DNA of 64,000 nucleotides, taken from Bilabrum cf. latius (lineage: Eukaryota). Location: contig OZ237746.1 in assembly GCA_965178125.1 (NCBI GenBank), forward strand, positions 1,240,001 to 1,304,000, given 5' to 3'. The notes beneath the pieces were generated by a model. The model did no database searches. It worked only from the letters and a program-made list of their open reading frames with translations, and was not told where the DNA came from. Below, piece by piece: positions 1-64,000 of this stretch (the stretch's first letter is position 1; each line of letters opens with the position of its first letter). The position numbers and the translations under genes were made by a program.

Positions 1-1246
1 CCACCCGAATGTCGCTGTTCTGCTCGTTCATGAGCAGGCCATCCCCGCCGCAGTCCGACAGCATCGAGCGCAGCACCCCCACACTCGTCACGTTGCTGTG
101 CAGCACCACGCAGGCCTGCCCCGCGTGCTGCACCTGCACGCCTTCCAGCGCGATCCCCGAGGCGTCCGCCACCTCCAGCGCGCCCCGGCTGGGGATGTAC
201 GTGCGCGCGCGGGCGTCCATGCCCCCGTCCGTGGAGTGCTGCACCGCAATGCCCTGCATGGATATGTCCGTTGCGCCGGCCTCGATGCTCACCACGGTGC
301 GGAGGCGAGGGACCACCACCCGGGAGCTCCCCGGATCGAACCCCGGAGGAGGCAGGAAATAAAGCTTGTTCCTCCCGGCGGCAGCGTCCCAGTACCACTC
401 CCCCGGCTCATCCAGCCCCTCCCGCGCGTTGTCCACGAGGAACCGCTGGCCCCCCTGCACGGCGTACTGCCCCACGGCGCCTAGCGTCTGGTCGCGGAAC
501 TGCACCGTGCCTGTGGACTCGTCGACGGACTGCACGCGCGCCCAGTCCGCCGTCCACGCATTGAACACCAGCACGCTCACGTTGGCCAGGTCGTACAGGC
601 CGCTGTGCAGGAACTGCAGCGCGGACGGCTCTACCACCATGCCGGTGCGGTCGGCGGGCGGGCACCCCGCGCTGTTGACCGCACTGCCAGCCCCTCGCTC
701 GATTCCGTTGGAATCAGCGGATGCGCACGGTTGGAGCGGCTTGGCCCACCGCGCGGTCGAATTGGGCCCGAGGAACCGCTGGTAGGCCTCGCTCGGGTCG
801 CTCGGGACGGTGCGAGCACGCTGCATGCGAAACCCGTCACAGAACAGCTATGTCACCTCAATGCCTGCTGGAACTGAATATTCCAGAGTTCCAGCTGGGT
901 ATGGTGCTGGCGCTGGCACCGGGTTTGACAGCAGACTGCCGCCAGACACCGTACCTGGACCTTTCCAAACTGTCCCGGAATCTGATGCATTCAGGACGAG
1001 GGTATCTGGCAGGTAGTGGGTGCCACCCTATAGATAAATGTTAACACGACGCACGGTTGTGCTCCCCTGGGCCTCTCGCGCCATGGCTTGGGCGAGCAGC
1101 GGCGAGTCCACTGGATCCTCGCGGTTGCCTTTGGCGCCTGGCCGGCCGCTGGGCGAGACGAAAATCTCAAGGAAGCTCCCGCTGGCATGTGCGATTGGTA
1201 CAATACATAAATGTACAAGTAGCAGCACCTTGGGTAAGACACGCAT
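1..1246 (-). CDS. Secreted right-handed parallel beta-helix (pectin-lyase-like / GH141-like) protein, 3' end runs off the window
   Basis: ATG at 1246 gives a signal-peptide-like MRVLPKVLLLVHLCIVPIAHA. Motifs include IFVSPSG, IYL*GGTHYL, *LFCDGFRMQRAR, EGLDEPGEWYWD and beta-helix repeats (LEGVQVQHAGQACVVL...SDCGGDGLLM). Two in-frame TAGs (1028-1030, 848-850) are read as Gln. Confidence 0.75.
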
Positions 1247-1366
1247 CAGTGAACGGGAATGGTAACGTTGGTATGCTTCGGTTGCATCATGTGGTGCTGA
1301 CGACGAGCAACTTTCAAGAGGAGTGCCGCAGTGCTGCATGCAGCTACCTAGACTAGACTATAGTCG

Positions 1367-2125
1367 TCAGAAGTCGTCCCCACCGAGCCCACCGAGCCCG
1401 CCCCCAAACAAAGCACCCCCTCCTGATACCCCGTCCCCAACACCCCCGAACTTGCCCGCCTCGTCCTCCTCCCCCATGGAGGACCCCTCGTCCTCCTCAC
1501 CCTCGTCCTCGTCCTCGTCGCTGCTACCGGCCCCCGCCCCCGCGCGGGGAGCACCTCCTTCCTTTGGCGGATTCTTGATAACCACCTCCTTCTCCTAATC
1601 CAGCAGATGCAAAAACTTGTCTTTCTACACATCTGGTACCAAGCGCTTATCGGTGGGCGCACTGCCAGCCGCCGTCGACGAGCTCGATATCATAGTGCCG
1701 CCCAGGCCGTCCACACCGCCGGCTGCGGCAACTTGCTTCTGATGCTGACTGATTGCATTGAATAGAGCAACAACACCTTTTGTGGCAATTCGTTTCAACT
1801 ATCTCTCGAACGGCTTGTCGAGCGGGTCCGGAGGCTGATGTGCCCGGCGACGAAGCCGTTTTCGTTCCTTTGCTCGCTCCTTTTGCTCCTTCTTTTCCTG
1901 CGCAAGCTTTTCTGTTCGTTTCTCTGAAGCCGTGTGTCGCTTTGCGAGCACAGGGTCCTGCTACCCGATGTCTTTGCCGAGAATGTGCTGCATGGCAACT
2001 GCAAAGCCAGTCGGGGCCTCTTCTTGTGCTGTTCCTTCGATCCTTGCTCGCTTTTCATCCTGCGGCTGACCTCCCATTTCCTATCTACCGCGTTTACGAC
2101 CAGATATAGCGCGTTGAGACTCCAT
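1367..2125 (-). CDS. RRP15: RRP15-like pre-rRNA processing protein (~252 aa)
   Basis: Single frame from ATG 2125 to TGA 1369-1367 with 5 TAGs (2081, 1961, 1799, 1625, 1595). Motifs FAVAMQHILG, PVLAKR, FER*LKRIATKGVVALFNAISQHQK and KDKFLHLL, followed by an acidic tail. Confidence 0.88.
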
Positions 2126-2197
2126 TTGCGGCAGTATGGCCCGCTATTGCACCTGTGCTCTCTGCCGAATTGTCCAGTGCCGAAATCCGATATTCCG

Positions 2198-5100
2198 ATG
2201 GAGCTCTCGCCTGCCGGTCGAAATTCGGCCGGAGCGCGTCCCGGCTCAGCGCAATACTTCATGGACCAGTCAGGTAAGTGTAATTGGTAAAGTTTCACCC
2301 CTCGCGTGGGTACTTTGCTTCGTGTCGAGCTGCAGTCAGGATCCCGACTGCTCCGAACCGCGGTTTCATCGCTCGGGCGGCACAGAATATGTTATGATGC
2401 GCGGTTGTCCAATCTGGAGCGGCCTGTTACTTTGTGTGGTCTGTGCCATATGTCAGTACACGTGGCTTGGCGTACAGTGCTCGAAGTACCACGGGAAGGA
2501 CCTGCCGAATATTCCGGTGCATTCGCGACCACTGCTGCGATTCGCGATGCACTTAACCAATCCACTTATGTACCGGCTCATTCGATGTTGCAGAAATCAA
2601 TGGACTAGCTAGGCAGCAGCCATTCCTCAACGAGTTGCTTCGGCTGCTGCATGACTCTCCTGAGCTCATTTTCGAGAAGGCTGGCGGGCGGTGCCTGTCC
2701 ATCCCTCACATTGGCAAGTTTCTCAATTCCATGCGACCGCTGCGCAAGTCTAGGGCGACCAAACCAGAGGGTAAGCTGCCGTGGGACGGCCACGACGAGT
2801 CTGTGTGGCAGACGTTCGGCAAATCGACCTTCAAGCGGCAGCTCAGCAACTACGGATTTACGTACGCCCGCGTTGCCGCCACGGGCATCGACGTGAGTTT
2901 TCCCAAGCAGCTGGGACACCTGCCCGTGGCCAAGGCCTGGGAGGCCCTGGCTCAGCTTGGCCAGAACCGCCGGCGCCGCCGGGACCAGAAGCGCAAGAGC
3001 AGAACGGAGGACTCCCCCGCTGGGGGCAGCGGCGGCGGCGGGGGGGGCTCCAAGGGGACAGGGGCCTCCTCCAGCAGGAGCAGGCCATCGGCTGCATCGG
3101 CCTACGCGGCGCACAGCGCTGCCCAGCAGGAAGCCGCGCGCCGCCGCCGCCGAGCCATGGGTGCGTCTGGGCGCAGCAAGGGGCTGCGGGGCGCGGGCGG
3201 GGCGGGTGCCTCCGGGAGAGGGGGGGCGGGGGGCGCGGGAGCGGCTGACCTGTCGCTGGAGCAGGCAGCACAGGCCCTGGCGAGCGTCCGGGGCGTGGGG
3301 GAGGGCGGCGATGGGGGGCACCACCACGGGGGGGGGCACGGGCACAGGCACCACGGGGGGCGGTCGTCCTCGGGACGGCGCGGGAGTGGGGTGGGCCCCG
3401 CGGGGAGGCCCAACGCGGCTCTGGCCAAGGCGCTGGGGCTGGTGCCGCAGGAGGGACAGGCCCTTCGGCAGCGCGGGCTGAGCGAGTCGCTGTCAGCCGC
3501 CGCCGAGGCCGCCGCTGCCTCGGATGGGCTGGTGTTCGGGACGGATGACGGGCCCGCGTCCTCGCCGCGGTCCCTGGGCGCGGGGGCCGGGTACAACCTG
3601 CAGTACAGAGGTGGGCGACACAGCCGCAGCTCCAGCATGGCGCGGCATGCGAGGGGGCGCGGCATGACGGACGATGAGCGGTCCACTGGCACGCGGGAGG
3701 ACGGGGCCGCGAGTCCACATTCCCAGGTGTCGGATCTGGCGGCCTCTAAAGCGGCGGCGATGGAGGCAGAGGCGGCGGCGAGGCAGGCCGGGAGCCTGGG
3801 CGGGGGTGGCAGCTCGCGGCGGGGCGCTGGTCGGGCGGGGCACGGGTCGTCCTCGTCCTCGTCGTCGTCCTCGAGGCAGCACCAGGACGCGCTCGCGGCG
3901 CTGCACAGGGCCGAGCAGGAGGCGCAGGCCCGCAGTCGGGCGGGGAGCACGGCGGTGTTCCTGGCAGGGGGGTCGCACCACAGCGGAGTGGGGCATGCTG
4001 GCCACGGCCTGCGGGGGGGGCGGGGTGGGGGTGGGAGCGGGGCCCGGGGAGCCGTGGGATCCTTGGGCGAGTCGAATAGCTCGGGGGCACTGGATGACGA
4101 GATTGATGTGGGGGTGCACGACGTGACGCTCGGGGGCGCGTCGGTGGGAAGCGGGGCGGAGGGTGGGGCGCCCACCACCCCCGCGCTGGGACCGCTGGGG
4201 TCTGCCCCCGGGTCGGGGGCGGGACCCCCCGGCCGCCGGTTTTCCGTGCTGGACGCCTCCTCTGCGGCTGCGGCCTCGCGGGTCAGTGAAGCCCTCGGGG
4301 GCGCGGGACAGGGACAGGGGCAGGGACAGGGCGACGCCAACAACGGGGAGGGCGTGGGGCTGGGGCTGCCCGCGCTGCCTTCCGCCGCGGCGGCGGCCGC
4401 GGCTGCCGCGGGCGGTCTGGGTGGTGCCGCGGTGGGGTCCGAAGGTCGCGCGAGCACTGGTTCCTCCGTGTCTCGGCGATCCCACGGGACGGAGGGCGAG
4501 GGGGACCGCGCTGCGGGCGGGCTGGCCAGGGACCTGCTGGCGGACGACCGCAGGACGCGGGCCTTTAGCACCGCGAGCGGGCTGATGGCGGGGAGTGGGA
4601 GCGCGGGGGGGGCGGGGGAGCACAGGGGCGCGGGGGGGGGCGCGGGGGGCAAGTCCGGAGGCATGCCCGTGGGGGGGCTGCTGGGCACGAGGGGCGGACA
4701 CAGGCCCAGCGTGAGCTTCGGGGGTGCCGCGGGGGCGGCGGCTGCGGCTGCTGCATCCTCTTCGTCAACCGGTGGCAAGTACATCGGGTCTGCGGGCGGC
4801 AGCGCGGCACCGGGGGGCCAGCTGGCGGCCGCGGCCTCGTCCAAGGTGTCTTAGGACGCCTTCGGGAAGGGGGGCAAGGACAGGCATGGGTCTGACGCCG
4901 GGTTGGGTGACCAGTACATCCAGGACGACGACTCGGCGCTGGCGGGGCCCTCGCGACGGGCCCGGTTCATGAGCGCCGCCTCGATGGCCAGCGAGGGGGC
5001 GGGCGGGCTGCTCCTGCGAGCGGGGGCCTACGGTGGCCACGATGACGATGACGACGACGATGACGACGAGCAGGATGAGGACGATGAGGAAGTGGAGGTG

Positions 5101-7122
5101 GGCGGGGGGACCATCGGGGACGGGGCCTCCTCCCGCGGCGGCGGCAGCAGGGCGGGCTCCAGACGGGGCGCGGGCGGGGGCAGGGGCGGGGGCAGGGGCG
5201 GGGGCAGCGGGAGGGGACGAAGAAGAAGGGGGTCCACTGGGCTGGGGGAGGCCCTCTCGGCGGCAGCCAGCAGCGTGCGGGGGGGCGAGGACGGGGACGA
5301 TGACGAGGACGACGTGCACAGCCAGGGGATGGGGATGGGGATGGGCGCGGGTGGCTACGACCGCACCCCGCAGCTGTCCCCGGTGGACTCGGCGTCGCAA
5401 GGGGGCCGCATGGCCTCCTCGGGCACGTTGCCGCCGGCGGGAGAGGGCGTGGTGGTGGCCAGTTCCGGAGGGATGCTGCCTCCTCCCGGCATCCGGGCGT
5501 CGTCTTCTTCTTCTTCTTCCCAGGCCGCGAACGGTGCGGGAGGGCCCGACAGCTCGCCCTCCATGGCGGGGCTGGCCCTTGCAGATGCGCTTGTTCCCCC
5601 GGCGGGTGCCACCGCCGAGGACGGGGTGGGGGAACACAGGCACGGGCACGGGCATTCGGGGGAGGAGGCCGCCGGAAGCAGCGCCCGTGTGCGGCAGTAC
5701 GGCGACTACGGCTCGGGGACGACCCACGAGGTCGACGCGGGGGCCGGGGCCGGGGCGGGGGCGGGGGCTTTGAATGGGGCCGGTGGCGCGGTGAGCTCGC
5801 CCAGTGCGGGACCAGGGATAGGAGGTATGGACGGGGGCGGGCTCACGATGGCGGTCGGCCTGGAGCACATGGGCGGCGGAAGAGGAAGAGATGGGGCGCG
5901 GGTCCCGGGCAGCGAGAGCAAGCCGCCCGCGGGTGGCACGCTGGCGCGTCTGCTGGCGAGTGGAAGCGCGACCGTTGGCGGGGAAGAAGAAGGGGATCTG
6001 GCGGGTGCTGGCGCTGGTGCCGAGGAGGGGACCTCTGCCCGCACTCGGCCGTGGGACGAGCAGCAGAGGTAGAGGCAGCAGCGGGGGTCCCACCCACTGG
6101 GCCCCCTCGCAAGGGCGGGGCACCTGAGCCAGGAACAGGTGGCGCGCATCGGGCCGAGCGGGCGGATCCGGTGGGACCCGGAGCTGAAAGTAAAGGAGGA
6201 CGGGTCGTCGTCGAGCGGGGGAGGTAGTGCGGCCGGTGGGATGGTCGCGGGTCGCAAGCGGCCTCGAGAGAGGTCGGGCACCTTCCACGGGGACCCGACG
6301 ATGCTGGTGGCGCTGGCCACTGCGAGCGAGCTGCATGGCACTGCAGCGGCTGGCGGGGCCATCGACAGGCAGCAGCCGCTGGAGGAGGTGGCGCGCCTGG
6401 GGTCCTCGTCCTCGCTGGAGGAGCGAGCGGGGCGCGGGGGCGGGGGCGGGGCTGGTGGAGAGGGCGGGTCCGTGGGACCGTCTCCCGCCAAGCGGAGGAG
6501 GGTGGCCTCTGTGGTCTCGGAGGATGGGAACAGGAGCGGGCTGGACGTGCTCGCTGACGTGGGCTCGCAGGTGAGCCCTGCCCGCGGGTAGGAGGGGCAG
6601 GGGGCCGCGGAGAGGGAGAGGGAGAGGGGGGGCAGCGCGCGGCGGTTCTTCGACAGAGAGGGCGGGGCCTCGGGTGGCACGCCCCCCGGCAGCGCGCGAC
6701 GGTCCCGGCCCCGCAGCAACTCGATGCCTCAGGCGTACCACGCCGCGGTGGCCGGGGTGCGCTCCCCGCTGCGGCCGGGGCTGGGGCTGGGGGCGGGGGC
6801 CGGGGCCGCGCTGGGAGCGGGGAGGGGGGGCCTGGGCGGTGCCGTCGGTGTGGTGGAGCCTGCGAGCGGCGGCGGGTGGCTGGGGCCCCCCGTCGTGTCG
6901 GAGGGAGGGTCCGTGGGATAGGGCGATGAGCAGGAGGGAGGGGGTGCCGGGTCACCATCGGAAGGGATGGTCGGGAGCAAGCGGCCCCGGTCAGGCAGCC
7001 GCAGCACGGGGAAGAAGAAGAAGGGGGCAGCCAAGGATAAGGACAGTGAGCCGCCCGCCGTTCCCACCGTCACCCGCAGCGGGCGGCGATCCAAACCGAG
7101 CGCCAAGTACAAGGGGACTTGA
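2198..7122 (+). CDS. HSF-type DNA-binding domain protein with a very long low-complexity G/A/S-rich region (~1534 aa)
   Basis: Exon 1 is 2198-2273. Intron 2274-2593 (GTAAGT...TTGCAG) is phase-compatible. Exon 2 is 2594-7122 with TAGs at 4852, 6070, 6589 and 6919, ending at TGA 7120-7122. HSF-like motifs PFLNELLRLLHD and STFKRQLSNYGF. Confidence 0.75.
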
Positions 7123-8413: not shown

Positions 8414-11400
8414 TCAGACCCAGTCGAACGTCCGCAGTGAGGGAGCATGCGCGAGGAAGGCCTGGCGAGGCGTGAGGCGTTCAGCCTCTCGCCACCAGAC
8501 CGCCATATAGTCCGCCTCTAGGACTTGTTGCCTGCTCCAGATCCGGGAGCGTGCTAGCCTTGCCGTTCCCTTCGCCCAGATGCGTTCTAGCACCTGAAGC
8601 TCCTTGCTGAGGGCGCAACGGCCCAGCGTTCCTGTCATCCACTCTCCGATGAACTAGTTCTCGGAGGGATTCAGTATGTGTCCGAGCGGGTGGGCTCGGA
8701 TTGCAAGGTCTCGGGCTGTTGGGCTGCCCGAGCTGAGTTGTTCAGCTACGCACAGTTGGCAGGACTACAACCCCTCAATGGCTCGTCCGAAGCTCTCATT
8801 GGCCCTCTGCTACAAGCGTCGGATTGCACGTCGGCACCGTTCTTGGAGTTGTTCGAGGGTGCCTTGGACGATAGAGAGCTCCAAGGAGTCTGCGTCCCCT
8901 CGGTGTTCCTGTGTCAGCACCTGCTCCGTTTTGACGTGTTCCATCCATAGTGCTCTCCCCACTGCCGTGGGTGCCCAGGGTACGTCCGTGTGCGTGGCTT
9001 CCGCGCGCATCATCTCGGCCTGTACCGAGCGTTCTCCTCTGTGGTGCATGGTCCCTTCCCGAGGGTAACGCCCAGTGAGCCATCGTAGGATGAGGCGGCC
9101 GTCTCGGCCTCGCCAGGTGCTCCGTGCTATCGCCGGCATGGCCGAAGGGCCGAGGATCCGGGAATTGTCCAAACCGATGCAGCTCTGTAGGTATTTCATG
9201 CCTACAGAGTCCTCGTCAAACTTTGCCCAGGCGTCTGTCGCTACCGGGTGCATCGTTTCTGCTTCGCGCAGTATACCGGCAGCGTGCGTGCTGGAGCTCG
9301 ACTTCAGCAGTGCAGTCGCGTCCCGTAGGATATACGGGCACAGCCACGAGGTGAACGTTCGTTTCAGCTGCTTGCGGTTCTTGGTGTTGAAGATCATCTG
9401 GAAGACGGACTGGTCTCGTGCGCCATGTTGGCACCTGTAGACTGCGGCCATGTTCGCCATAGGTCCCTGGGCACTAGGTTCGTGCTTGACCATGTACCAC
9501 GCGGTTAGCTGCATGTGGGCAGGCGTGTCTCCGCTCAGCAGCACCAGTGAGCAGCCGTACGCCTGTGAGACAGCTCTGGCCATCGCGTCGGCCGGCCAGA
9601 CCAGCGCCCTGACCGTGTCCTTCGGCAGGAAACGGCCGCCTCCTTTCTTAGGAAGTCGGGGGGCTGCTTCGACCAGGGCGGCCCTGGCACAGTCTAGGAC
9701 CTCGTCGACAATGTTCAAAGCTGCCTTGTTCCAGACTATACCTGGTACGTAGGTGCATTTCACTGTCTTGCGTTTTAGCTCCTGCTCGAAGCCTGCTGGT
9801 GCCGCTGAGAGGTGGAGGTCTTGCAGCACCGTCCCGTAGACTGCACTGTACAGGATCGAGGACAGCTGTGCAAGGCTCCAGTCAGAGTTCACGGCTGCTT
9901 GGCAGATGTCCGCAATGCTTCGTCTTGCCTTGCCGGCTTGCCTCTCCAAGTGTTTCACTGGGTCCAGGACGTGGAGCTGTCTAGTACTTCCGTCGGCCAT
10001 TTTGACCGGTGCCCGTCTGGTGTGTAGACGGAAGCCGAGGTAGTCGTACTTGTGGACCAGTCGGATTGGCTCCAGTGGTGCCGTGGCTAGAGTGCCAGGA
10101 AGTTGCTCTTGGATCCTGAGATTGAGCTCCTCTGGGGTGAATGCAACTGCACGTCCGCTTTCCACGTCGTCGTCAGTTGCTTCGAACGCCTCACGGGTCA
10201 GTCCGGTCGCCATCACAGCTGTCTTGCTCGTGTAGCCATTGCTGACTGCTCTTACGCCCAACTCATGGCCAGACTCATGGTGTCCAATGGAGAGCACTGC
10301 TACAGCCGTCAGCGAGCCGCTCTTGCACAACATAGTGACGCAGGTGTCGTCCGCGTACAGCGTCTGTGGCTCCTTCTGTGCGATGTCCCAATCGGCTGTC
10401 AGTGGTGCCGCTTGCGGTCCTGCGCACGCCTGCCTGACGTACTCGTTCGCAGGTACCATTGATACCGCGAAGCCATCTGGGGAGATGGGATCTCCCTGGC
10501 ATGTCCCCTTTCCTCGCTCGAATGGTTCCGATCGGGTGTTGCTTGGGCGGTGGTACACCTCCGCTTTAGCTTTCATCCTATTGACGAATGCACTCGAAGC
10601 GGTCGCGCTCAGTCCAGCCTTCTCTAGCGTGTACCGCATGATAGGCCATTGGACTCGGTCGAATGCTGCTTTCAAGTCTCCGAACAGGAGCACGAGGCCC
10701 TGCTTCCCCGCGGTGAAGGTCTGCTGCAGAATCTTCAGGATTGCGATCACTCGGTCACGGCGCAGCGTGAAGCCGAACTGCGAAGCTCCTTTCGTTTGGC
10801 GTTGAGCCATGACTTCCTGGCAGTTGCCCAGCAGGATGATGCCCAATACCTTTGCAATCACGTCTGCGTACTAGATGCATCTGTAGTCACTGCATCGAAA
10901 GTCACGGTCGTCCGGCTTGCCTTTGAAGGCTGGTGCAATGAAAGTGCGCAAGAGGGTCAGCGGGTACTATCCGCACACCATTGCGCAATTGTGGATAGCT
11001 TGAAGGGCCTTGAGGAGTGTGTCAGGGTACTTGCGTTCTCCGTCGGCGAAATCGAATGTGAGTCTGATTGCGCGTGTTGGCACCCCGCTCGGCCCCGTAG
11101 CCTTTCCGGACTTCAACTACTTGATTGCAGTCGAGATGTGTTCCTCGGCAGCGTCATCAGTCACCAGCATGCCGATTTTCGGGGATGTTGGCATGTGTTG
11201 GCCCAGGACCTCGATGAATCTTGAGAGACCCTCATCAGTGGACGTGTCCACTGTGTTGGCCGTTGCGTTGGTAGCGCTACTGGAGTAGTATGCCGCGTGG
11301 GCGTCCACTGCCTCCTAGGCATTGGAGGTCCGTGTCCCGTCTTCGCGGTCCACCATTGCAATAGCTCGTTGCTTTGATCTTCTGGCCCCGAGTTGGCTCG

Positions 11401-12133
11401 ATATCGTGCGGTACGCCTCGCGGGCAGGTAGGACCTTCAGAGCTTGTTGGAGTGCGTGGGCATCGCAGCGGATACGATCTCTGGTGAGACGTGTCACTGA
11501 TATCGTGTCACTTCCTGCAGCTGCAACTACTCGTTGAAGCACCATCTTGTTCGCGAGGTTGCTCGGTTGTAGGTCTGCGGGGGCCAGGGAGGACAGTGCA
11601 GTCGGGAGCAGATGCTTGCCCCAATCGCAATTGGTCGCTACCCTAGCCTGTACCCGTCGTCGCAGTTTGCTGATCCTTTTGATCATGGCGTTGGCCTCTG
11701 GGCACTTGCCAGACCCAATCTCCCGTATTGACGTCTCGCGCCTGTCTGCGTGCTTGCTTTTGATCTTACGCAGCAGGGAGGCAGCTGTGTCCCGGATGCA
11801 GACAGTCTCGGTCAGAAGGGATGCGTCCTTGTGTCGCTGGAGTCTTGCTCTTTGGGCCCTTTTTACCATGCGAGAGATCTTCGCACGGTGCTGGAGGCGG
11901 CTGCGTGGGGCTGCTTGTTGGCGCTGGGCTGGTCCAACCGCGGCCTCGCAGGCTTTGGAGTCACAGTCTGCCAGCGTGGAGACCAGATGTTCCAGTACTG
12001 TCGTGGCTTGGCCAAGGATGCTGGCCTTTTCATCTCCTCCCGCTCCCGAGTCTTCACCTAGTGTCAGGGCTGCTGTGCTCGCCTGCTTGCTCAGCTCCAT
12101 CAGCTATGGCTGTTCGGCCAGCAACTGTGCCAT
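8414..12133 (-). mobile_element. Non-LTR (LINE-type) reverse transcriptase ORF, ~1239 aa, no recognisable endonuclease
   Basis: One frame from ATG 12133 to TGA 8416-8414 with 8 TAGs. RT motifs AIK*LKSGKATGPSGVP, DYRCI*YADVIAK, QFGF, FGDLKAAFDRV, GTCQGDPISP, YADD and YDYLGF. The C-terminus has a CQLC...HIL knuckle-like segment and LARSRIW. Confidence 0.85.
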
Positions 12134-12419
12134 CTTCCTGCGGTATCGGCGGACCTGGGCTTTGGTACGTGGTCTCCGTAGCGGCGAGCACTGCTCGCGG
12201 CGCCGCCGGCGGCGTCCCAAACCGGAACCGACGCGCACTTTCCGGAGAAGATATGGATCGTGCGTAAAGACACCGAGAACGGGGTATCTGGAGCCTTGTT
12301 TTTGGCGATCAGGATATCAATCGTGTATATTTGATAGTCTTTCTGAGGATTACCTGGTACAATTACGTAGATATCGACTATATCACCCTAGAAGTGGTAC
12401 AACTGCCTCACGATTCGCT

Positions 12420-36416: not shown

Positions 36417-36462
36417 AGAGCTTCCGCATGCTGCATATGTTATATATAGTCTAGTATCATAC

Positions 36463-41442: not shown

Positions 41443-41583
41443 CGATTGAGTTAACCGGGTTGAGTCGACTGGCGCACCCGGTATGATTGTCGTAGACCGC
41501 TTGCTGTGCACTTGAAAATCACGTTAGTTTTTGTTAGTTCACTGCAAAAGTTACATCGCTTACCAAATGGTGCGCTCTCACGA

Positions 41584-51868: not shown

Positions 51869-52108
51869 TTTGTATGCCTTCTTCCGGCCCTTCTGTGAGC
51901 TATAAGACTATCAATTGGCTGCTGCCCCTTTGATGTATCTTTGGGGGCTATCAACCAAGTACACTGCCTGGCGATCATCGTAGGCTGTAGAAATCCATAC
52001 TTTGTTTGTACCGTGTCATTCTGACCAGGAGAACCGGGCATCCTGAATCTCCCCGTAACTATCTTAGTGGGCTACGCTCCGGAATACCCAGTAGAATTTG
52101 CTTTTAAA

Positions 52109-53772: not shown

Positions 53773-53967
53773 TTGTGTCCGTGACAGTCCGTCAATTGCC
53801 CCGCAAGCAAACGTATAATCAACCTACATGTACCTACGATCACACTCCCGGCGCACTGTCGAGCGAGAAGAGGCCAACCGCTTTGCAGCGGTTCCGCTGC
53901 AGTGCCGCAGCAGAGGCGCGTCGAGGATTATCTCAATTTAAGCCCGTATGCCAGTCCTGGACTCAGA

Positions 53968-55797
53968 ATGTTGCCTGTGATGCTCGCAATTTTATCTATC
54001 TGCATGCTACTGGCTGCAGGTTCCATTGCAAGTGCTTTCGATGTTGTCATCAGCGACGAGGTTTCCAACACAGATTTTCTAGGCATTGGATTCGATGTAA
54101 CATCTTACCACACAAATAGAACACAAGATTAGTTGGACCATGTGTACCTTAAGCGCCTAGCTGAGGTTAATCCAAGTTTTGTGCGCGCCTCGCACGTGTG
54201 GGGGCCAACCGGCAATTGCACCGAGCCTGTCCTCAGCTTCGTGCACTGGGCGACGAACGCCTCGATCTATGTAACTACGATGGGCACTCCGCTGCACAAG
54301 AACCGTACCACCATCGATAATTATGGTGAACGTGTGGCAGAAGCTCTGGTTCCTATGCAAGCGGCGAGTAATAGCAGCATCCGCTGGTACTGCTTTACGA
54401 ATGAGATGTCGCTCTGCTCGAAAGGCTCGTGTGAGTGGGCGTATATGGCTAAACTTGGACTTCCGGAGGGCTACGATCTGTATAAGTGGTATCACGACGC
54501 TGTGCGATCGGGTCTGGAACAGTTCGGGCTTGCCCCGCGGCTTGGCCAGCTCGCCACGGACGCATCGTCAGGCTGGCAGTACTGGAAACCTACAATGAAC
54601 TGGGCATCCACGAATAGTACTGGTCCAAATTCAACTGACGGGGGCATCCTGTAGACAGTAGATGCGTGGGGCGGCCACGACTATGCGGACGGCTTCACGG
54701 TAGCTCCCGACGAATCGCGAGACGGCGGCTCCACGAACTCGTACTACTGGACGATCTCCGGCCTGTCGCGGTGGGGCGGGCAGAATCTCTCGGGTCGTTC
54801 CGAGGCCGCGGATGGAAGGTATCGCCCCTTCATCATCGGGGAGGTGGGCTCAGCTCAGCGCCAGCCCAAGAGACCCGGCAAGGGGTGCAGCATGCTGGAC
54901 TCTGCAGAATACTTTGACACGCCATCCGAGCCCTACGTGGCGCTGCAGATGGCAGAGATGGCCGTGGCAGCTGCCAACTACAGCATCAGCGCGCTGGCCT
55001 ACTGGTCTCTCGCCGACTCGCCCCGCAGAGCGGACGGCGTGTGCAACTGGTGGGGGGCATGGCGATGGACCCATGAGGCCGGCTTCGGGGCACGGTTCCA
55101 CTGGTACGCGCTGGGACCCATGGTGCGTGCCATGCGGGGTCCAGCCCGGACGCACGTGGTGCGTGTCGCAGACCCCCACCTCCGCGTGGCCGCCCTGCAG
55201 ACTACAGGCCCGGGGCAGCCCGGCATGGCCCCTGGTCCTGCCTGGACCGTGGTCGGGGTGCTGCGGCGGCCGAATGCCAGCGCCAAGCTGTCTGTATCTT
55301 TGCCTGCAAGTGAGGCATGTGATGCAGCATCCAGACCTTTCCGAGTGTGGATCTACGACCCCCTGGCCCCGCCCGCCAACACGACCTTCGCCGACCTGCC
55401 AGCCCACTCTCGATCCGTACTAGTATCCCCAACGCTGCGGGAGGACGGTACAAGTGGGTCGTCGCTGCAACTCGGTCCCTTACCCGCTAACTCCATGTTT
55501 GTGGCGACCTAGTCGTACTCGGACAGCGCGCCCCCAGCATGCAGAGGGCTGCACGTGACCTCGAGAGCTGGGTCCCGAGTGGAGCTCCAGTGGGACTGCA
55601 TGCCGGAATCGGTGGGTATCACGTACTACCGTGTGCTCTTGGCGGGGCAGCAGGTCCTCTCGACCGTGCGATGCGGGGCCACGGTGGCCGTGCAAGTGCC
55701 CGCGGGTGTAGGCATTGAGTCCAGCCTTGTGCAGGTGGTGGGTGTGAACCGAGGTGGGGACGCTGGCGAGGCCTGCCAAGCACCACTGGACTGGTGA
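53968..55797 (+). CDS. Secreted clan GH-A-like glycoside hydrolase with C-terminal beta-sandwich/FN3-like domain (~609 aa)
   Basis: Signal peptide, then FLGIGF, a putative acid/base motif WYCFTNEM, DAWGGHDY, a putative nucleophile motif PFIIGEVG and ALAYWS. The tail VELQWD...ITYYRV looks FN3-like. TAGs at 54130, 54652 and 55510. Confidence 0.65.
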
Positions 55798-55876
55798 AAG
55801 GCATCAACCCCAGGTTTGGGCAGCAGTGGGATGGAAAAATACGCGTACCACGATCAAATTGTGTCATGAGGTTGAT

Positions 55877-58093
55877 TCAGTCAAAGACATGCTCTACCCC
55901 GAAGTCGCTATCAAGTAGATCCACCCCTCGTTCACTGGCATCGTAGTCGGATAGCATCAGCTGCTCCAAGGGCTCTGCCAGCTCTTCCACAGCGCCCTCG
56001 CCCACCAGAAGGGCACCCACGAGCTTCTTGCCCCTACGCACAAGCTTCACGCAATCCCCCGACCCCAACCCCGCCCGTCCCTCGGTGACCCTGAACTCAA
56101 CGCGGTAGGCCGACTCCGAGTCGACGGCCGAGGCTCCCTCGCCCGCTCTGCTCGCCCCACTGCCAGACGCCGCTCCCGCATCTGCCTCGCCTGCCCCTGG
56201 CAGCTCTACCACAGGGCCCTTGTCTGCGATCCCTTCCCCTTGGTCGCCCAGGCCCGCTCCAGCAGCCACCCCCCCGGGCGAGACGGCCTCGAGTCCCCTG
56301 CCTGACGCAATCACGGACTCGCCCGTCGCTGCCTCGAGCGAGCCGTCGCCCTGGTGCAGCCCCATGGCGACCACCGTCTGTCCAAGCAGCTTCGTGCGGT
56401 GCGCGAACAGCTCAAAATTGTAGCCCGCCTCCAGTTCCAGCTGATCTAGACAGCCCACCGCGCACGCTCCTGCATACGCGCCCTAGATGCGCGCCTGCGA
56501 CCACAGCCGCATCTGCTTCCACAGGCACGGGCCTGCTGCCTCGCATTCCGCGACAAGCCGTGCGTGTCGCATAGCGGGCCACTGCACTGCAGCGCAATCA
56601 CCGGCTGCCATGACCAGGGGAGAGCCCGTAGTGCGCATGCCCTCGTCCACGACCAGCCCACCGCACGGTCCTCGCTCGAAGATGTGCTTCGGCTCGGTGC
56701 CTGCCTCTGCACCACCACTGTCGAGAACTGGGTCCGGGCCCTCCGCGGGCCCCCACTCCCAGCCTGCCCCGTACCCCTGGTCCAGTTTGATTGCACACGC
56801 ACCTGTTGTTGTTTTGGGCCGTGCTCTGCTCTCGCCACCCGCCCCTGCTTCATCTGTAGAATGTGAGTACAACGTGTGGTAGTGCTCCACCCCGCAGTCC
56901 CCGCTGAAGTCTGCGCACAGTTCTGTTCGAGGGAACACACCTGTGGCCACCACCACCATGTCGCACTCGACGAAGCGAGGTGCATCACTCGATGGGGAGC
57001 CGTAAGCACCGATTTCCTCGAGCGACAGACAGAGTGCGAACTTGTCCGCGCCAGAACCAGAGTCAAAACCAGATTCCGCTCCGATTCCCGCCTTCTCCTC
57101 CTCTTCCTGTCCACCGGCACCGGCACTGGCACTGGCACTGGCAGTCTTCTCCTTGACCCCGACCACTCCCACCCCGCGCAGCAAAGCAACTGGGTGCAGG
57201 GCGGCAGGTGTGGACGCGGTCGGGGCATCCAGGCTGCTCTCGGGTGCACCTGTATCCTTCTTGGAGATACAGCTCAGCAGAAGCGACTGCCAACCGGGGC
57301 CCAGGCTATTTCCCGAGTACTGCTGCTGCACTTCTTCGGAGACCGCAGGAGCACCATCCTGCGGCAGCTTCGGCGGCATACCTAGCTGCTCCCCTGGATC
57401 ACCACGTGCATCGGCGCTGGCTGGCACGATAGAGGGGTCCCTTTTAAGAAAGCTGTGTGTACTGCCGACAGTAGCCTACCGTAGCAAGAAAGCAGAGGCG
57501 GTTGCATCCAACAGCGTCGATCCTACCACAGAGTTCCTGCAGATCCAGGATACCGGACACACTCGCCGCAGGAAGTGCACAAGCTCCAATGAGAGTGCGC
57601 CATTTCCAACGATTGCGATGTGTTTTGGACTGAACGCCTAAAGCCGCCTTGATAGACGACGAACGCTTGCTTCGTCGCGAATAGCCGCTACCCTGCCGCC
57701 ACGATCCCTGAGAGCCGCTGGTACATGCGGCCGAGCACCAGTGCATAATACAATCCTATCAAACGGTAGGATCTGACCTGTCTCCAGGACCACTTGTCGC
57801 CTTGGAACATCGAGTGTGGAGACGGCGGCCTGAAGTGCCCGAACGCCTGGATATTTCCGTTGCAAGAAGTCGAGTGGCAAGCATTCGACTTGCAGGCTTT
57901 CTAAACTAGACGTAATCTAAACGAGTTCGCGTACTCCTGTAAGAGATCTTGAAGCAGATACGACAGTGACATTGACTTTCCGCCCACACGCAGAACTAAG
58001 GCGCGCCGCCTCTTCGGCACAAGAGACACCTGCGACACCACCGCCGACTACAACCAGGCTTAGAGGAGGGAGACCCTCTACTGACTTGCTCAT
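55877..58093 (-). CDS. PYROXD1: PYROXD1-like pyridine nucleotide-disulfide oxidoreductase (~738 aa)
   Basis: Motifs VVVGGGVAGVSCAE, LCTGARP, IVGNGALSLEL, NSLGPGW, VATGVFP, AAGDCA, QMRLWSQAR, FELFAHRT and C-terminal DLLD...FD. Four TAGs (57917, 57638, 57476, 56483). Confidence 0.92.
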
Positions 58094-58258
58094 TGCATTT
58101 GCATCGCACCCTGCACACTAATGACCCGTCCGCCGGCGTCCATTCGCGGTTCATTCGCGGTTGCAACGTCGAAAATTGAATGAACGGACGGGAAGCCAAG
58201 GCAGGTACTTCGACTCCCACATGAAAGTATGGACACCATAAATCACTTATCAGTAGGA

Positions 58259-61200
58259 ATGGCGCTGCATGCTATCCCAAATTCGTAGCCGCAGAGTGGA
58301 ATCGCGCAGTCTCGGCTTGGGCTCGGTTAGGGTATTCAAAAATGTGTGTCTTCGATCTCGGGTAGTAACGCCAAGAAGAGGCGAATCCATGAATACGATG
58401 TCGAAGGTGTACCTCGTTTACCTCTGGGCGACCTTGCCTTGAATGTGTCTGCCTCTGATTCAACAGAGCAGTAGCGCCAGGTCGATCAGTGCGTGCACTC
58501 CCCAGAAGAGGATGCCGCTATTAGCAGCCTCGGTCCCCCCGCATGGCTCGGCAGTTCCGTTATTCGTGGCTCTGTCATTCGTAGCATTGGACGTAGCGGC
58601 CAATGCCACGATTCCCTGGTCGCTGTGGAGGCCACAGTCGTGTATCATCGGACTGCAACCACGGACTCCCTGCTCGGTTTGTTGAGCGAGACGACTAGTG
58701 AAACCAGTAGTACAGGCAAAATCAAAGTAGTTCTACAAGGTGGTTGGCTGGCTTCCATGGCTGATATCGTGGAACCCGAGTAGATCGCAGCCCACCAAGC
58801 ATCAAAAGACCGAGCCAGCTCAATGCTGCCAAATGGCACTCTGCTGCACATTGTATTTGAAGACGCGTCGCACAACAGGAAGGATTTGTGCGCCGCGAGT
58901 ACCGCTGGTGCAGCCGTAGGCAGTAGTGACGTTCCAATCGTGGTGGCTGCTGACCCTCACGTCTCAAGCCCAGGCCCCTTCGGCCGCGTGCTGGTCGTGC
59001 TGCACCCTGACCTGGTGCTCTCTCCCAGCAGGGTGCTCGAGGCGCAGTAGTGCCTGAGAAAGGCCGTCATCAGACAGCTGGTGGGTTCTTCTGGGATTCA
59101 GGCTGCCTTTGAGCCCGAGTGGGAGCCTGGTGCTGCAGCCGTATCGATTGGCCAGCCATCAGCCGCAAGCAGCAGCAGCAGCAGCAGTAGCAGCAGCAGC
59201 AGTAGCAGCAGCAGCAGTAGCAGCAGCAGCAGTAGCAGTAGCAAATCGAGCGCCAAGCCACACGTTGGAGCGCTTGCATCGGGTGTTCTCCGCCATTCGC
59301 TCTTCCAGATGGCCTTGCAGCGATGCGCTGGGGCCAAGCTGCTGTGCGACAGAGCGGCGGCTCGATCAGCCAGCCGATCCTCCGCCAGTGGAGCAGCAGC
59401 GGGTGTGCCTATTGCAGTGGTCCGCGGCCTTAACCGCACCGCCGCAGCCCGCGGATTTCCTTCTCTGGTCCTGCGACAGGGTACCCTGTGCCCGCGGGTA
59501 ACTGGGGCATGGGTACGCAAGCTGATCCCTGCCGTGGTCCGCACGCAGGAAGCTCGCAGGCTTCTGCTACCGGAAAGTGCAGCAGACAACGATGCTGTTG
59601 CGATGCTGTAGCTGGCTGCTGCCCCCATTGCAAGCTGGCTGGAATCTCAGTTCGGAGCAACGGCGTCGTAGGGGAGTGCATCCCAGTACGGTGCATCGGG
59701 CGCAGATGCACCCGAAGAGACCACCATCCACGACGTACTCGGCATAGAGGTCATGGTGCGGTCGCCCGTGTGGGGCCTGCTTGGCTTCGTAGATGCTATC
59801 GTCGCCGCTACCGATGACAGCAAAAGGGGTCCACACAGCAGAGTGCTTCCTCTGGAACTTAAGACAGGCTTCCAGGCTGCAGGGCGGGGAGTGCACTGGA
59901 AACACTCTGGCTAGCTGGCCATGTACAGCGCCATGATGCACGGACCACCAGGCTGGCAGGGAGGGGAAGACTCCGCTAAAGGCCTTCTCTCATACCTGCC
60001 AGGTGACAAAAAAGGAGCCACTGCATCTCAGCAGAGCGGCACGGCATCTCCAGGAGGTTCCGAGGCGGGTTGCAGGACGCATTGTGTGAGCTCCACGCTG
60101 GGTGAGACTGCAACACTGCTTCAACTTCGGAATCGCCTCGCGTGCGCAATTCAGTTGCACCGACGCGCTGTCTTGCTGCATGCAGCCGACAAGCAGGTCC
60201 CTTCCGAGCCGGGCACTCCACTTGATTCCACCTTCCCTCCAGTGCTGGGGGAATCCGAGTGCAGACCATGTAAGCACTGCTCTGAGATTAGCACATGCGC
60301 AGCTATCGCAGGAGCCGCTAGATTGAGCAGTCGTCCAGTATCATCAACCGCATGTGGGGATTCCCCAGTGGCTACTGCAAGGGGCTCCGCCACCAATTCC
60401 ATTGTGGTGGAGAGGGTCGCTGCCATGCGCGTATCCGAGCCAGCGGCACGTTGGGTTTGGTCGAATTGGGCCGCTTCGCTTGCTGAGTCGCAAGACTAGC
60501 CCGATGCTGGAGCACCGACAGGCAAGTTTTGCTTCAGTGGCACAACGCTTTTAGACGCAGTGGCGATCGCTTCCCGATTAATCGAGGGGTCGGTGGATGG
60601 GATGTCCTTTGAAACTATCCGTAATTTGCACAACTGGAGCCTGGCCTGTTTGGGAGACGATGGTCGTGTGTTTTTGGTGGATATTTCCGTGGCGTGTGCC
60701 TGCATACAATAGATGCACCCTGAAGGGTTGCAGCCACTTGTTCTGTCGCCCAAGCAAGAGGTCACGCTGCAGTCTTGTGGGCCCGTGTCTACATGCTTCA
60801 AGGCTGTTGGAGCCTCCACCCCTGCGGCGGATCTCTTGCACTGCCGTTCCACAAGGGCGGCGGTACTCGAGTCTCAACGATCGTACGGTGTGGGTGGGGC
60901 TGTTGCCATTGAAACTCCTACTCTCTAGCTGCTACAGTCGCTCTGTGCGACATCTTGCGGTGCTCAGATCAAGGGTTTACGGGTAGTGCACCAAGGGATC
61001 GAACGGGAATTGCGCGCCTTGGCATACCCAGATGGCATGCCAGCCGTCTTTCGCACCTCAACCGGAGGAAGGTATGGATAGGACCGCACGATGCTGGTGC
61101 AGGTGGCAGCGGCAGCAGTGGGCCAGCCTGCTTCAACTTGGGGACTAACAAGAGGATTTTCGATTGCTGGCGCACTTGCTGATCCTGCTAGGCTCTTCCA

Positions 61201-63217
61201 GACCCGTGAATTGGCTAATATGCCTACCCTTCCACAAGCGGATTCAGGACCTTGGGAGGGTCTCAATTCCGACCAGTCCCGTGCTGCTGCCGGTGTACTT
61301 CGGATGGCGGAGCTAGTGACTGGCGGTGCCGGTGTGGATGAGCTTGCAAGACGCGCAAACGTGCGAAATCCTACTGCCCAAGTCCCTGGAGCGAGCGAGC
61401 CCCAGCACGGCACCGGATCATCTGGCATTCCAGTCGCGCTGATTCACGGGATGCCCGGTACTGGCAAGTCGGCCACCATTTGCAGGATCATTGAGGCCGT
61501 GTGTCGTCGCGGGGGGCGCGTGCTGGTCACAGCCCTCACGAACTGTGCTGTTGACAACGTGCTGGAGAGGTTGCTTCAAAGCAAAGGTGGAACTTCCACG
61601 TCTGTGACAGCTGACCCTGCTGCATGCGGTGCATGGCCTGCAGGTGATTCAGTTCGATGCATCCGTGTTCGTAAACCGGCGTCCCCGCCAGCGGTACTAT
61701 TGCAGTCGCCCTGGTGTCGCTTCGTGGGGCCAGGAGCAGGCGACGACGAGCCCGAGACGGTGGATGGGCTTCGCCAAATGATGCGATCTGCCTCGGTAGT
61801 TGGACTCACGGCGACTGCATGCATGTATCCATCCACATATGCATACGTGAATTGCGCCGGGCCGTACGATCTGTGTATTGTAGATGAAGCGGCTCAGATG
61901 TCGCAGCCTGCCGCCGTAGCGGCGATCGGCCTCAGCAAAGCGGTGTGCCTTGTGGGGGACGATGAGCAGCTTCCGCCGATGGTGCGTTCTGACGCTGCTG
62001 CAAGACTTGGTCTTGGAACTTCAGTGTTCGCTTTAGTGAAAGACGCAAGGAGTGATACAGAATCCTTGCATCTAGCTGCCTCTGCCAGCAGCTCTTCTAG
62101 TGCAGGCGGCAGCAGGCGAGTTTACAGTCTGTGCAAGCAATATCGGATGTGCATGGCGATTGAGTGGCTGTCTAACCAAGTAACGTACAATGGACACTTG
62201 TCGGCAGGAAGTAAAGCAATTTCAAGGCAAACTATAGGATCCATGTAGACGAGAGCTCTGATGGCACCGCTGGGCGATGCACCTGTAGAGACCGAGCTCT
62301 GCGCCCTGTTGGCTGTGTGCAGCCCCAGAGCTGAGTGCTCGGTAGTTTGGCTAGACGGTGGGTATGCAGCACCTCTTGCTGCGACCGTGGCTTCTGCGCT
62401 GGTTTCGTAGCCCATATCTGTCTCAGTGACGGCCGCAAGGTTGGCTGGCCCTCGTATAGCTGCTGCCGCGTTGGCGTGCATGCGCGGTGAGTCGGCAGGC
62501 ACGGCAGTTGCACCAAGTGCAATTCAAAGGGCCATTTGCTCGTTGTAGTCGCAAAGTACCCCGTCCATGAAACGGTAGACTGACACCAGCAAGGTGAACA
62601 TGATGGAATTGCTGCGAGGCGTTGCCGTATTCGTGGCTCTGCTACGCACGGGCATTCCACCTGCTGCCATGTGTTTCATTTCGCCATTTCGATCGCAAGT
62701 AGAGGCGATGCGGGAGACTCTGCGCGTTCTTAGTGCGGCTTCTGGCTCTCGTGGGAGTAGTAATGACAGCAAGAGTCCCGCTGTAATTCCTGCGGGGGCT
62801 ACAGACGTGACCTCTGGTATAGACTGGCTTTCCTAGCTCGCAACTATAGATGTGGGCACAGTGGATGCGTTTCAAGGGCAGGATCGGGAAGTGGTTGTAC
62901 TCAGCATTGTAGACTCTTTTACTGAAAGCCGAAAGTCTGGCAGAGACAGGGATGCAACCACCCTGACACTGCAGGCGCGTCGCGAGCTGGATGGCACTCA
63001 TGTCGGCAACCCGGCCCGGCTGAATGTCAGCATAACACGTGCAAAGAGCAAGCTTGTTCTGTTGGGCTGCATGGGGGATGTCGGCACGAGATCTGAGGAC
63101 TCACAGACCGCTTTTGGTCGCCTGTGCAAGGCTGTTCGAAGGCAGAGGTGGCGGCACGATGCCGGGCGAGCTTTGCATAGTGTGCGGCTTGCTGCGGCGT
63201 GTGAGTTGGATGAGTGA
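58259..63217 (+). CDS. DNA2: DNA2 nuclease/helicase (~1652 aa)
   Basis: Single frame with 17 TAGs. Nuclease part: HPDLVLS...*CLRK, SPVWGLLGFVDA, PLELKTG, *LAMY, LRNRLA and CKHCSEISTC (Fe-S ligands). SF1 helicase part: GMPGTGKS, TNCAVDN, DEAAQ, VGDDEQLPP, QYRM, TVDAFQG and RLNVSITRAK. Confidence 0.92.
59168..59242 (+). repeat. (AGY)n trinucleotide repeat encoding poly-Ser within DNA2
   Basis: About 25 consecutive AGC/AGT codons in the DNA2 frame. Confidence 0.9.
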
Positions 63218-63294
63218 GGGATTCATCGCAAGTTGAATTGCTCACTTTATTCTGCTATATACCCGTATAGGACGTTATGGTCGTGCTGAAAGCC

Positions 63295-64000
63295 TCATCT
63301 TCGCTAATAAATGCAACAACTCCCAAATACCTACGTCAGCAGCGCCACCCCAACAGCGGCTGCCAGAATACCCAAGTACTGTTGCCACCTATCCTAGAAC
63401 GTGCTCGCAACAAAGTTCTCCACGAAGCCCTCTGCGGTTACCCTTCGAACACCACCGCTACTGACCCAATCAAAGGATGGACAGCCTGCCTATAGCCTCT
63501 GATCCTCAGTTGCGTGGGCACCAGCCTGGTAGCAGTGTGCTTGTGTCAGGCCCATGGGCGCGTTCGCCATGAAGGTCGGGTTAAAGTATGTTGCAATAAA
63601 TCTTGGAACGGCACTATAGTTTTTCACTCCCCCCACGAAGATGCTATTGAATAGCGCTGCCAGGTTGTTCAGGATTCCTGTGAAAACATGGGCAACCAAA
63701 GCGTCTTCAATGAGCACAGAGCTCAAGTGAGACGTCCAGCTGAGCCACAAGCCACAACCGAGAAAAACTGCAATCATTTCAAGGATGGGCCCAGGCTAGT
63801 CAAGCCTCAGTCCAAGCAGCAAGTACATGATTGGGGCCGTGAGCATGGCAAAGCAGGCGAGGTACAGGGTCTCCTTGATGACCAGAGCAGCGTAGTAGCT
63901 GTGCGGCGAGTACAGTCCAATCGACTGCTCTCTGTAAAACAAAGGACGTGCCTTGAACAACATCGATACCTGCGAGTTGAATACTCCGGCGCAAAAGAAA
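63295..64000 (-). CDS. ABCG/PDR-type ABC transporter, C-terminal transmembrane domain (5' part outside the window)
   Basis: RPLFYREQSIGLYSPHSY...ETLY...IMYLLLGL and further TM helices, ending CCIY*RR at TGA 63297-63295. Five TAGs. Confidence 0.85.

Follow-up and report, generated by a model that had tools for sequence, protein, structure and literature searches.

UAG most probably read as glutamine, with UAA and UGA kept as stops, in nuclear genes of a GC-rich protist probably related to bicosoecids

The stretch of DNA studied here, a 64-kilobase (kb) window of contig OZ237746.1 from the Bilabrum cf. latius assembly, has a G+C content (GC) of about 64%, and the reading frames of nearly all its genes run through TAG codons. 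We propose, with a probability of roughly 0.9, that UAG has been reassigned genome-wide in this organism from stop to glutamine, with termination left to UGA, which ends most genes, and to UAA. The DNA of the window comes from the nucleus of a protist and is rich in GC, poor in introns and dense in genes: genes are tightly packed on both strands, introns are scarce, and Pfam scans identified ordinary eukaryotic nuclear genes with domains on either side of the TAGs. The standard code fragments the long genes of the window, and the reading of TAG as a residue gives single frames of 3300, 3227, 1662, 1495 and 1274 amino acids (aa).

The 21 open reading frame (ORF) models of the window, 18,310 codons together, contain 102 in-frame TAGs and no internal TAA or TGA; 18 of them end with TGA, two with TAA, and one runs off the window edge. 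When a stricter set of 19 models was counted, the coding frame had 99 TAG, 0 TAA and 0 TGA, the two zeros being partly a consequence of the ORF definition. The two other frames of the same 19 genes contain 244 and 237 TGA, 32 and 47 TAA, and 101 and 86 TAG. Thus, TAG is equally common in and out of frame. Some TAGs near the 5' ends of ORF models may precede the true start codon. At 48 of the TAGs, homology supports the same frame on both sides. Spliced exons add one TAG in NOT1, one in the gene at 52077-53796 and four in the predicted first exon of NDUFS8.

These counts agree well with an earlier note on this DNA, which had been made from the letters alone and had estimated about 105 in-frame TAGs (99-102 in our ORF models and 6 in spliced exons). 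The numbers that it gave for NOT1 (about 22), DNA2 (17) and NDUFS8 (4) were recovered as 21 plus 1, 17 and 4. For RPB8, where it saw three, the whole ORF has four, three of them within the Rpb8 domain. The five TAGs that it had singled out are all where it placed them: codon 531 of CRY-DASH (28342-28344), codon 562 of DNA2 (59912-59914), codon 164 of a beta-helix protein (850-848), codon 232 of an ABCG transporter (63306-63304) and codon 59 of a PYROXD1-like protein (57919-57917). That frames stay open past TAG with motifs intact, to an extent beyond chance, is seen in NOT1, 3300 aa long with four Pfam domains, and in DNA2, 1662 aa long.

Contigs from four runs (X1, X5, X6 and X8), each of a different study, were compared with the window over 36400-56399, and no other letter, insertion or deletion was found. 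The X1 contig is unbroken from 40016 to 56399 and runs through the introns of the gene at 52077-53796. In X5 and X6, the contigs are gene-sized (36517-38026, 38363-41533, 41554-51441, 52077-53796 and 53946-55925), and they skip four GT..AG introns that X1 retains, two on the plus strand (52322-52409 and 52614-52713) and two on the minus strand (51442-51553 and 51650-51763). Their depth varies gene by gene, the RPB8 contig (36517-38026) having the highest depth in the region. Because they are gene-sized, skip introns and differ in depth by gene, we take the X5 and X6 contigs to be transcript assemblies. They cover 42 TAG codons, all unchanged: 4 in RPB8, 2 in a PRA1-family gene, 12 in an ORF of 1013 aa, 21 in NOT1 and 3 in an ORF of 631 aa. 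Since all 42 are unchanged in independent contigs, base miscalls, removal of TAG by splicing and editing at the consensus level are excluded. The check that mRNA retains UAG, suggested by the earlier note, thus had a positive outcome in contigs whose RNA nature is judged from their spliced joints: transcripts keep UAG.

The identity of the encoded residue is best judged from a relative. A scan of metagenome contigs for NOT1 yielded one locus, L001 (6945 nucleotides (nt), 56% GC), which is a single open frame of 2315 codons with 30 TAG, 0 TAA and 0 TGA. Its product and the NOT1 of the window are identical at 1405 of 2275 aligned residues (62%). There are 45 aligned sites with TAG in either species, and only at one of them do both have it; therefore, TAG and CAR (CAA or CAG) codons interchange freely. 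The partner codon is CAA or CAG at 24 of the other 44 sites, and the remaining partners are Gly (4), Leu (4), Ser (3), Pro (2), Glu (2), and Arg, Ala, His, Lys and Asp (1 each). For calibration, ordinary glutamine stands opposite glutamine at 43% of sites in this alignment, and each of 10 other residues checked at no more than 10.5%. In a likelihood ranking based on the same pair, glutamine was best, with His next at -39.5 log-likelihood units (lnL) and Lys, Glu and Leu at -62.5, -64.9 and -106.8. TAG accounts for 24% of glutamine-type codons in L001 (30/123) and 12% in the window (102/839), and it differs from CAG by a single transition.

Other homologues point in the same direction at particular sites. 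At codon 531 of CRY-DASH, glutamine was found in 120/120 homologues, and at codon 295 in 78/120; P0026, a fragment of a 76%-identical CRY-DASH, has glutamine at both TAG sites of the window. In the alignment with mouse DNA2, TAG 562 is opposite the glutamine of the nuclease motif and TAG 274 is opposite Arg. Comparison of NOT1 with the Cafeteria clade (31% identity) gave glutamine in 11/112 cases at TAG sites, with 11.7% for ordinary glutamine and at most 4.5% for each of 12 other residues checked. Judged from these alignments, UAG most probably stands for glutamine in abundant and essential messages.

TGA terminates 18 of 20 complete ORF models and TAA 2 of 20, and TGA does not occur in frame. 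An ambiguous code of the Condylostoma or Blastocrithidia type, in which UAG would mean glutamine inside genes and would also act as a terminator near some mRNA 3' ends, seems quite unlikely to us. Codes without dedicated stop codons do exist (PMC4967479, 10.1101/2022.04.12.488043), and the last TAG of the ABCG gene lies two codons before TGA, so that either could end the protein. Against such a code, TGA or TAA is positioned 24-128 nt before the X5 contig end in all five transcripts with contig-delimited 3' ends (those of NOT1, PRA1, the 1013-aa ORF, the gene at 52077-53796 and the 631-aa ORF), with the reservation that contig ends are imprecise as 3' ends. In the X6 contig of the gene at 52077-53796, the distance from stop to contig end is 31 nt. 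Moreover, the last TAG of NOT1 is followed by 200 more residues of the conserved Not1 domain.

Another variant would have UAA and UAG both encode glutamine and UGA as the sole stop (NCBI table 6, the code of ciliates, ulvophytes and hexamitins), with TAA being rare through high GC. The 18 TGA against only 2 TAA ends among the complete models would fit it, as would the ulvophytes with this code, which use TAG more than TAA and have TGA as their only stop (PMC2984419). However, CAA makes up 19% of CAR codons in the window; with TAA and TAG in the same proportion as CAA and CAG, the 18,310 codons should contain about 24 in-frame TAA, while none was seen beside the 102 TAG. In L001, with 49 CAA and 44 CAG, about 33 would be expected in 2315 codons and again none was seen, beside 30 TAG. 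TAA also closes genes. In a SNARE ORF, the match to the 89-position synaptobrevin profile extends to position 87, and TAA comes two residues later. In the 1013-aa ORF, the 7 codons after the closing TAA include another TAA and a TGA, and the transcript contig ends 91 nt downstream of the stop. Because in-frame TAA is missing where about 24 and 33 are expected, and because TAA closes genes, the code is the UAG-only variant rather than one with both UAA and UAG (UAR) as glutamine: UAA is a stop, not a sense codon, and we regard its use for glutamine as very improbable. The earlier note had implied as much, and the coding frames of both species, together with the two genes ended by TAA in the window, bear it out.

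Several observations weigh against the assignment of UAG to glutamine or restrict the evidence for it. The strong glutamine signal comes mainly from one gene and one relative. Distant homologues often have something else: the TAGs of RPB8 are opposite Asp, Pro/Thr and Ile in plant and human RPB8 (alignments to PDB entries), and those of NOT1 are opposite Lys/Arg, Asn, Glu, Leu and Ile/Val in 24 homologues. In Rrp15, TAG 64 is opposite Glu and TAG 118 opposite Asn of human RRP15, and in the PYROXD1-like protein three of the four TAGs face Thr (152), Lys (206) and Met (537) of human PYROXD1 (E 1.4e-41), the fourth, TAG 59, facing glutamine. A close NOT1 fragment has Ser at TAG 3074. A profile-style tally of 22 TAG columns, well occupied and drawn from NOT1 (24 rows), CRY-DASH (120 rows) and DNA2 (6 of 8 hits), put Ser first and glutamine 2.9 lnL behind, with Ser, Gly and Arg slightly above glutamine, by a method that, at this sample size and over 100 resamplings, recovered true CAG only 44 times and true CAA only 58 times. 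The argument from conserved motifs made in the earlier note therefore stands in part: TAG does occupy conserved glutamine positions in CRY-DASH, in the nuclease motif of DNA2 and at codon 59 of the PYROXD1-like protein, and the argument is weaker than was held there, as many TAG columns are not glutamine in distant homologues. On the side of transcripts and termination, that X5 and X6 are RNA is deduced from spliced joints, X5 being labelled 'RNA? (probably DNA)'; contigs lose rare variants, and an edited minority of molecules is thus compatible with them; and the 64 kb sampled are compatible with termination at UAG in some genes elsewhere.

The mixed columns and the tally, with its 44-58% accuracy, are also what speaks for UAG as a sense codon for another residue (His, Glu, Lys, Ser or Leu) or for several, and codes with UAG as Leu (PMC5304391) or as Glu (PMC10553269) exist in other eukaryotes. 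Nevertheless, there is very little room for this, as every alternative was at least 39.5 lnL below glutamine in the calibrated pairwise likelihood, a TAG of CRY-DASH occupies a glutamine position invariant in 120/120 homologues, 24 of 44 partner codons are CAA or CAG, and TAG is one transition away from CAG. An artefact (pseudogenes, CAG-to-TAG miscalls, TAGs spliced out or edited, or readthrough specific to certain genes) is scarcely credible, as nothing was found in its favour, the sequence is the same in four runs of four studies with 42/42 covered TAGs kept in spliced contigs, the essential genes RPB8, NOT1, DNA2 and NDUFS8 carry TAG in frames open for up to 3300 codons, and the divergent L001 has the same pattern at mostly other sites (1/45 common). 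The essential genes affected, TAG unchanged in independent DNA and spliced contigs, and its occurrence in a relative with 62% identity also bear out the view of the earlier note that the TAGs reflect sense reassignment rather than readthrough or decay.

With UAG as a glutamine codon, its decoding could be explained by two changes, for which lineages with similar codes serve as the basis (PMC5304391, PMC2984419). A descendant of a normal tRNA-Gln whose anticodon had become CUA would read UAG, and an eRF1 with weakened recognition of UAG would terminate at it inefficiently. No tRNA gene was found within the 64-kb window, nor was the eRF1 gene. As the NOT1 of Cafeteria is a full-length, 2715-aa product of the standard code, 31% identical to the NOT1 of the window, the code change would postdate the separation from the Cafeteria clade, and it would precede that from the L001 lineage.

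The placement of the organism relies on two single-gene trees with few named rows. In the tree of the NOT1 C-terminus (43 rows, LG+C20+F+G4), the window grouped with P0184, P0190 and Cafeteria roenbergensis, with an ultrafast bootstrap of 100, in a run whose bootstrap was not fully settled, and 99 in the SH-like approximate likelihood ratio test (SH-aLRT). In the CRY-DASH tree, the clade that holds the window and its close relative has 10 rows, among them Cafeteria and the brown alga Pylaiella; its SH-aLRT support is 96, and streptophytes lie outside it. Neither tree puts the organism with a lineage known to use this code. With moderate confidence, these trees make it a stramenopile that is a distant relative of bicosoecids. 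DNA2 gave 8 hits; those with a name belong to two oomycetes, to a fungus resembling Mortierella and to an actinomycete (an AAA-domain protein of Longispora). NDUFS8, compared with solved structures, is too highly conserved for placing the organism.

By score, some genes looked green (Viridiplantae). These are RPB8, the desaturase and the C-terminal part of NOT1, with hits to Spirogloea, Micromonas, Closterium and Dolichomastix, as well as CRY-DASH, with Tetradesmus as the top hit. A green alga was considered for this reason, but site-heterogeneous trees put the window with Cafeteria and other stramenopiles, Tetradesmus being a long outlier. TGTAA is the poly(A) signal of green algae, and it was not consistently present before the 3' ends of contigs. 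An aphelid was rejected: Amoeboaphelidium, in which UAR encodes glutamine, has genomes of about 40% GC (PMC10608142) versus 64% here, and TAA is not a sense codon here.

The 20 kb shared without any difference come from runs under four organism labels, and small shares of the sequence are present in runs labelled as algae or protist metagenome. The organism behind the shared runs may be a co-cultured or contaminating flagellate and not the labelled subject of some of them.

The kind of code is already known, and its occurrence in a stramenopile would be a further case. In Iotanema spirale (Fornicata) and two lineages of phyllopharyngean ciliates, UAG is glutamine and UAA is kept as a stop (PMC5304391). 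The likeness to this code (NCBI table 15) extends to UAA and UGA as terminators and to UAG as a minority glutamine codon (about 8% in Iotanema according to the same source, 12% in the window and 24% in L001), whereas the main stop is UAA in Iotanema (PMC5304391) and UGA in the window. The window further differs from Iotanema and these ciliates as a 64-kb stretch of 64% GC that both gene trees (NOT1 and CRY-DASH) place among stramenopiles. A complex I subunit and CRY-DASH on a 64-kb, 64% GC stretch fit neither an anaerobic fornicate nor a ciliate macronucleus. With the code of table 6, used by many ciliates, hexamitin diplomonads, some Ulvophyceae, Streblomastix and Amoeboaphelidium protococcarum, the window shares the change of UAG from stop to glutamine, probably by way of a mutated tRNA-Gln, and TGA as the predominant stop; in contrast, UAA is also glutamine in those lineages, while in the window TAA is absent in frame and ends genes. 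The UAG-to-Leu code, described for the rhizarian exLh and some phyllopharyngean ciliates, is similar in that UAG alone is reassigned and UAA and UGA are stops, but the residue differs, Leu being 106.8 lnL worse than glutamine here. Cafeteria roenbergensis (Bicosoecida), the closest named relative in the two trees, has, like the window, a GC-rich (about 70%) and compact nuclear genome, of 34-36 Mb, in which nuclear genes are annotated with the standard code (10.1101/751586).

No report of a UAG-to-Gln code in a stramenopile, bicosoecid or alga, or of any recent nuclear case, was found in the literature searched, most subscription journals and supplements being outside its scope. Because the single-gene trees place the organism beside Cafeteria in stramenopiles, the UAG-only-to-Gln code would be of independent origin. 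We consider it an evenly balanced proposition that this code, with UAA and UGA retained, arose independently in a previously unrecognised GC-rich lineage of bicosoecid-related stramenopiles, that it is common to two or more members of deep divergence (their NOT1 proteins being 62% identical), that it is the first nuclear code change reported in stramenopiles, and that its origin was in a genome with TGA rather than TAA as the main stop. Among nuclear code changes, which are rare, those that split UAG from UAA are rarer still: the sources consulted list one fornicate, one rhizarian and some phyllopharyngean ciliates, and in one ciliate UAA and UAG encode different amino acids (PMC10553269). If this is an independent case in a GC-rich relative of Cafeteria, it would be a new data point on the uncoupling of UAG from UAA, and the divergent pair of genomes would be suited for tracing the changes in tRNA and eRF1. 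In practical terms, gene callers that use the standard code would fragment nearly every gene of this organism. The public protein fragments P0026, P0255 and P0299, which are, besides L001, the close fragments present in metagenome and assembly collections, look like such standard-code pieces. Annotation, phylogenomics and metagenome binning of the lineage require table 15.

NOT1 (the scaffold of CCR4-NOT) has its main exon at 41584-51486 on the minus strand, with four NOT1 Pfam domains in order, 21 in-frame TAGs and a TGA stop. Its upstream exons, at 51554-51649 and from 51764 upstream, contain one further TAG and are joined at GT..AG boundaries (51441>51554 and 51649>51764) in X5 and X6. Convergent to it on the plus strand is the 1013-aa ORF (38401-41442), which could not be assigned to a family and has 12 in-frame TAGs and the TAA stop described above; the X5 contig 38363-41533 matches it with 0 differences. 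The stops of the two genes are separated by 141 nt and the ends of their transcript contigs (41533 and 41554) by about 20 nt; the 3' untranslated regions of both are very short. Within the 1013-aa ORF, a repeat of the GACACC/GACGCC type at 40013-40061 encodes a Thr-Asp run. DNA contigs break at this repeat, and it draws many other contigs, with a summed depth of about 1330 in X1 and about 300 in X8; the many contigs and the very high depth indicate that the genome or sample has like repeats at numerous sites.

The remaining genes covered by the X5 and X6 contigs lie on both sides of this pair. RPB8, the common subunit of RNA polymerases I-III (36463-37074, minus strand; Pfam PF03870, E 2.5e-41), has four in-frame TAGs, three of them within the Rpb8 domain, and a TGA stop. 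Next to it is the PRA1-family gene (37201-38082, minus strand; PF03208), with two in-frame TAGs and a TGA stop, which the X5 and X6 contigs match with 0 differences. The spliced gene at 52077-53796 (plus strand), not assigned to a family, has introns at 52322-52409 and 52614-52713, one in-frame TAG and a TGA stop; after splicing, its open frame is 501 codons from stop to stop and 455 aa from the first Met. The 631-aa ORF (53902-55797, plus strand) encodes a secreted-looking protein not assigned to a family, with three in-frame TAGs and a TGA stop, and agrees with the X5 contig 53946-55925 with 0 differences.

Three genes have a TAG at a glutamine site of their homologues. CRY-DASH (26752-28998, plus strand), with Pfam photolyase and FAD_binding_7 domains, has TAG at 27634-27636 (codon 295) and 28342-28344 (codon 531). 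At 28700-28998 (plus strand), it ends in a C-terminal tail of about 100 aa that is rich in Gly, Arg and Lys (RGG-like) and that the plant CRY-DASH proteins in the alignment do not have. The DNA2 nuclease-helicase (58229-63217, plus strand; Pfam Dna2 and AAA_11/AAA_12) is a 1662-aa frame with 17 in-frame TAGs, including that of the nuclease motif at 59912-59914, and a TGA stop. The PYROXD1-like flavoprotein (55877-58093, minus strand; Pyr_redox_2) has four in-frame TAGs, one of them at 57919-57917, and a TGA stop. NDUFS8, the TYKY subunit of complex I (30060-30970, plus strand), has Pfam 4Fe-4S domains and about 269 bits to solved NDUFS8 chains, and its four TAGs are in predicted exon 1. The predicted intron of 125 nt at 30364-30488 is the sole GT[AG]AG...CAG candidate of 50-200 nt that keeps the frame open. 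Together with the four introns skipped in X5 and X6 (51442-51553, 51650-51763, 52322-52409 and 52614-52713), it belongs to a set of five with lengths of 88-125 nt, GTGAG or GTAAG at the 5' end and CGCAG at the 3' end in every case, the 3' splice consensus being tight.

At the two edges of the window, genes are cut. The 5' part of a secreted parallel-beta-helix-like protein (2-1339, minus strand) passes the window start and has in-frame TAGs at codons 104 and 164 (the latter at 850-848); its PDB matches, the glycoside hydrolase BT_1002 and a parallel beta-helix repeat protein, are weak, and TAG 104 is opposite Glu or Arg there, none of the alignments covering TAG 164. The C-terminal membrane domain of the ABCG transporter (63295-63999, minus strand; ABC2_membrane) passes the window end and contains five in-frame TAGs, the last one two codons before TGA; no match to this fragment was found among solved structures.

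A mobile element is also present. The ORF of a retroelement with a reverse-transcriptase domain (8414-12238, minus strand; PF00078, E 1e-9) contains eight in-frame TAGs, and it thus shares the code of the host genes. Being written in the variant code of its host, it would be a long-term resident and not a recent arrival. The upstream end of this ORF overlaps the longest model (11547-21230) of a neighbouring very long ORF not assigned to a family (12642-21230, plus strand), which is 2862 aa from the first ATG and 3227 aa in that longest model, with 5-6 in-frame TAGs and a TGA stop. On the other side of the retroelement are the homologue of Rrp15 (1367-2152, minus strand; PF07890, E 3.6e-22), with six in-frame TAGs, three within the Rrp15p domain, and a TGA stop, and a long low-complexity ORF rich in Gly, Ala and Ser (2635-7122, plus strand), with four in-frame TAGs, a TGA stop and no Pfam family, which is putatively coding, as judged by its length and high third-position GC only.

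Five further genes lie between 21335 and 36416. The longin-type SNARE of the synaptobrevin family (21335-21913, minus strand; Pfam Synaptobrevin) has one in-frame TAG and the TAA stop right behind its C-terminal membrane anchor. It is followed by histone H2B (22890-23438, plus strand; Pfam Histone, E 1.6e-21), with an uncertain N-terminal gene model and a TGA stop, and by an ERGIC-53-like L-type lectin (23846-25624, minus strand; PF03388, E 3.5e-26), with one in-frame TAG and a TGA stop. An ORF of 861 aa without a Pfam family (33831-36416, plus strand) has two in-frame TAGs and a TGA stop. Finally, a front-end, delta-8-like desaturase fused to cytochrome b5 (31507-33666, plus strand; Cyt-b5 and FA_desaturase) has no TAG and ends with TGA, its look-alikes being sphingolipid and delta-8 desaturases. 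With its start codon taken as provisional, it has about 270 aa ahead of the Cyt-b5 domain, an N-terminal extension (31507-32310, plus strand) that includes hydrophobic segments.

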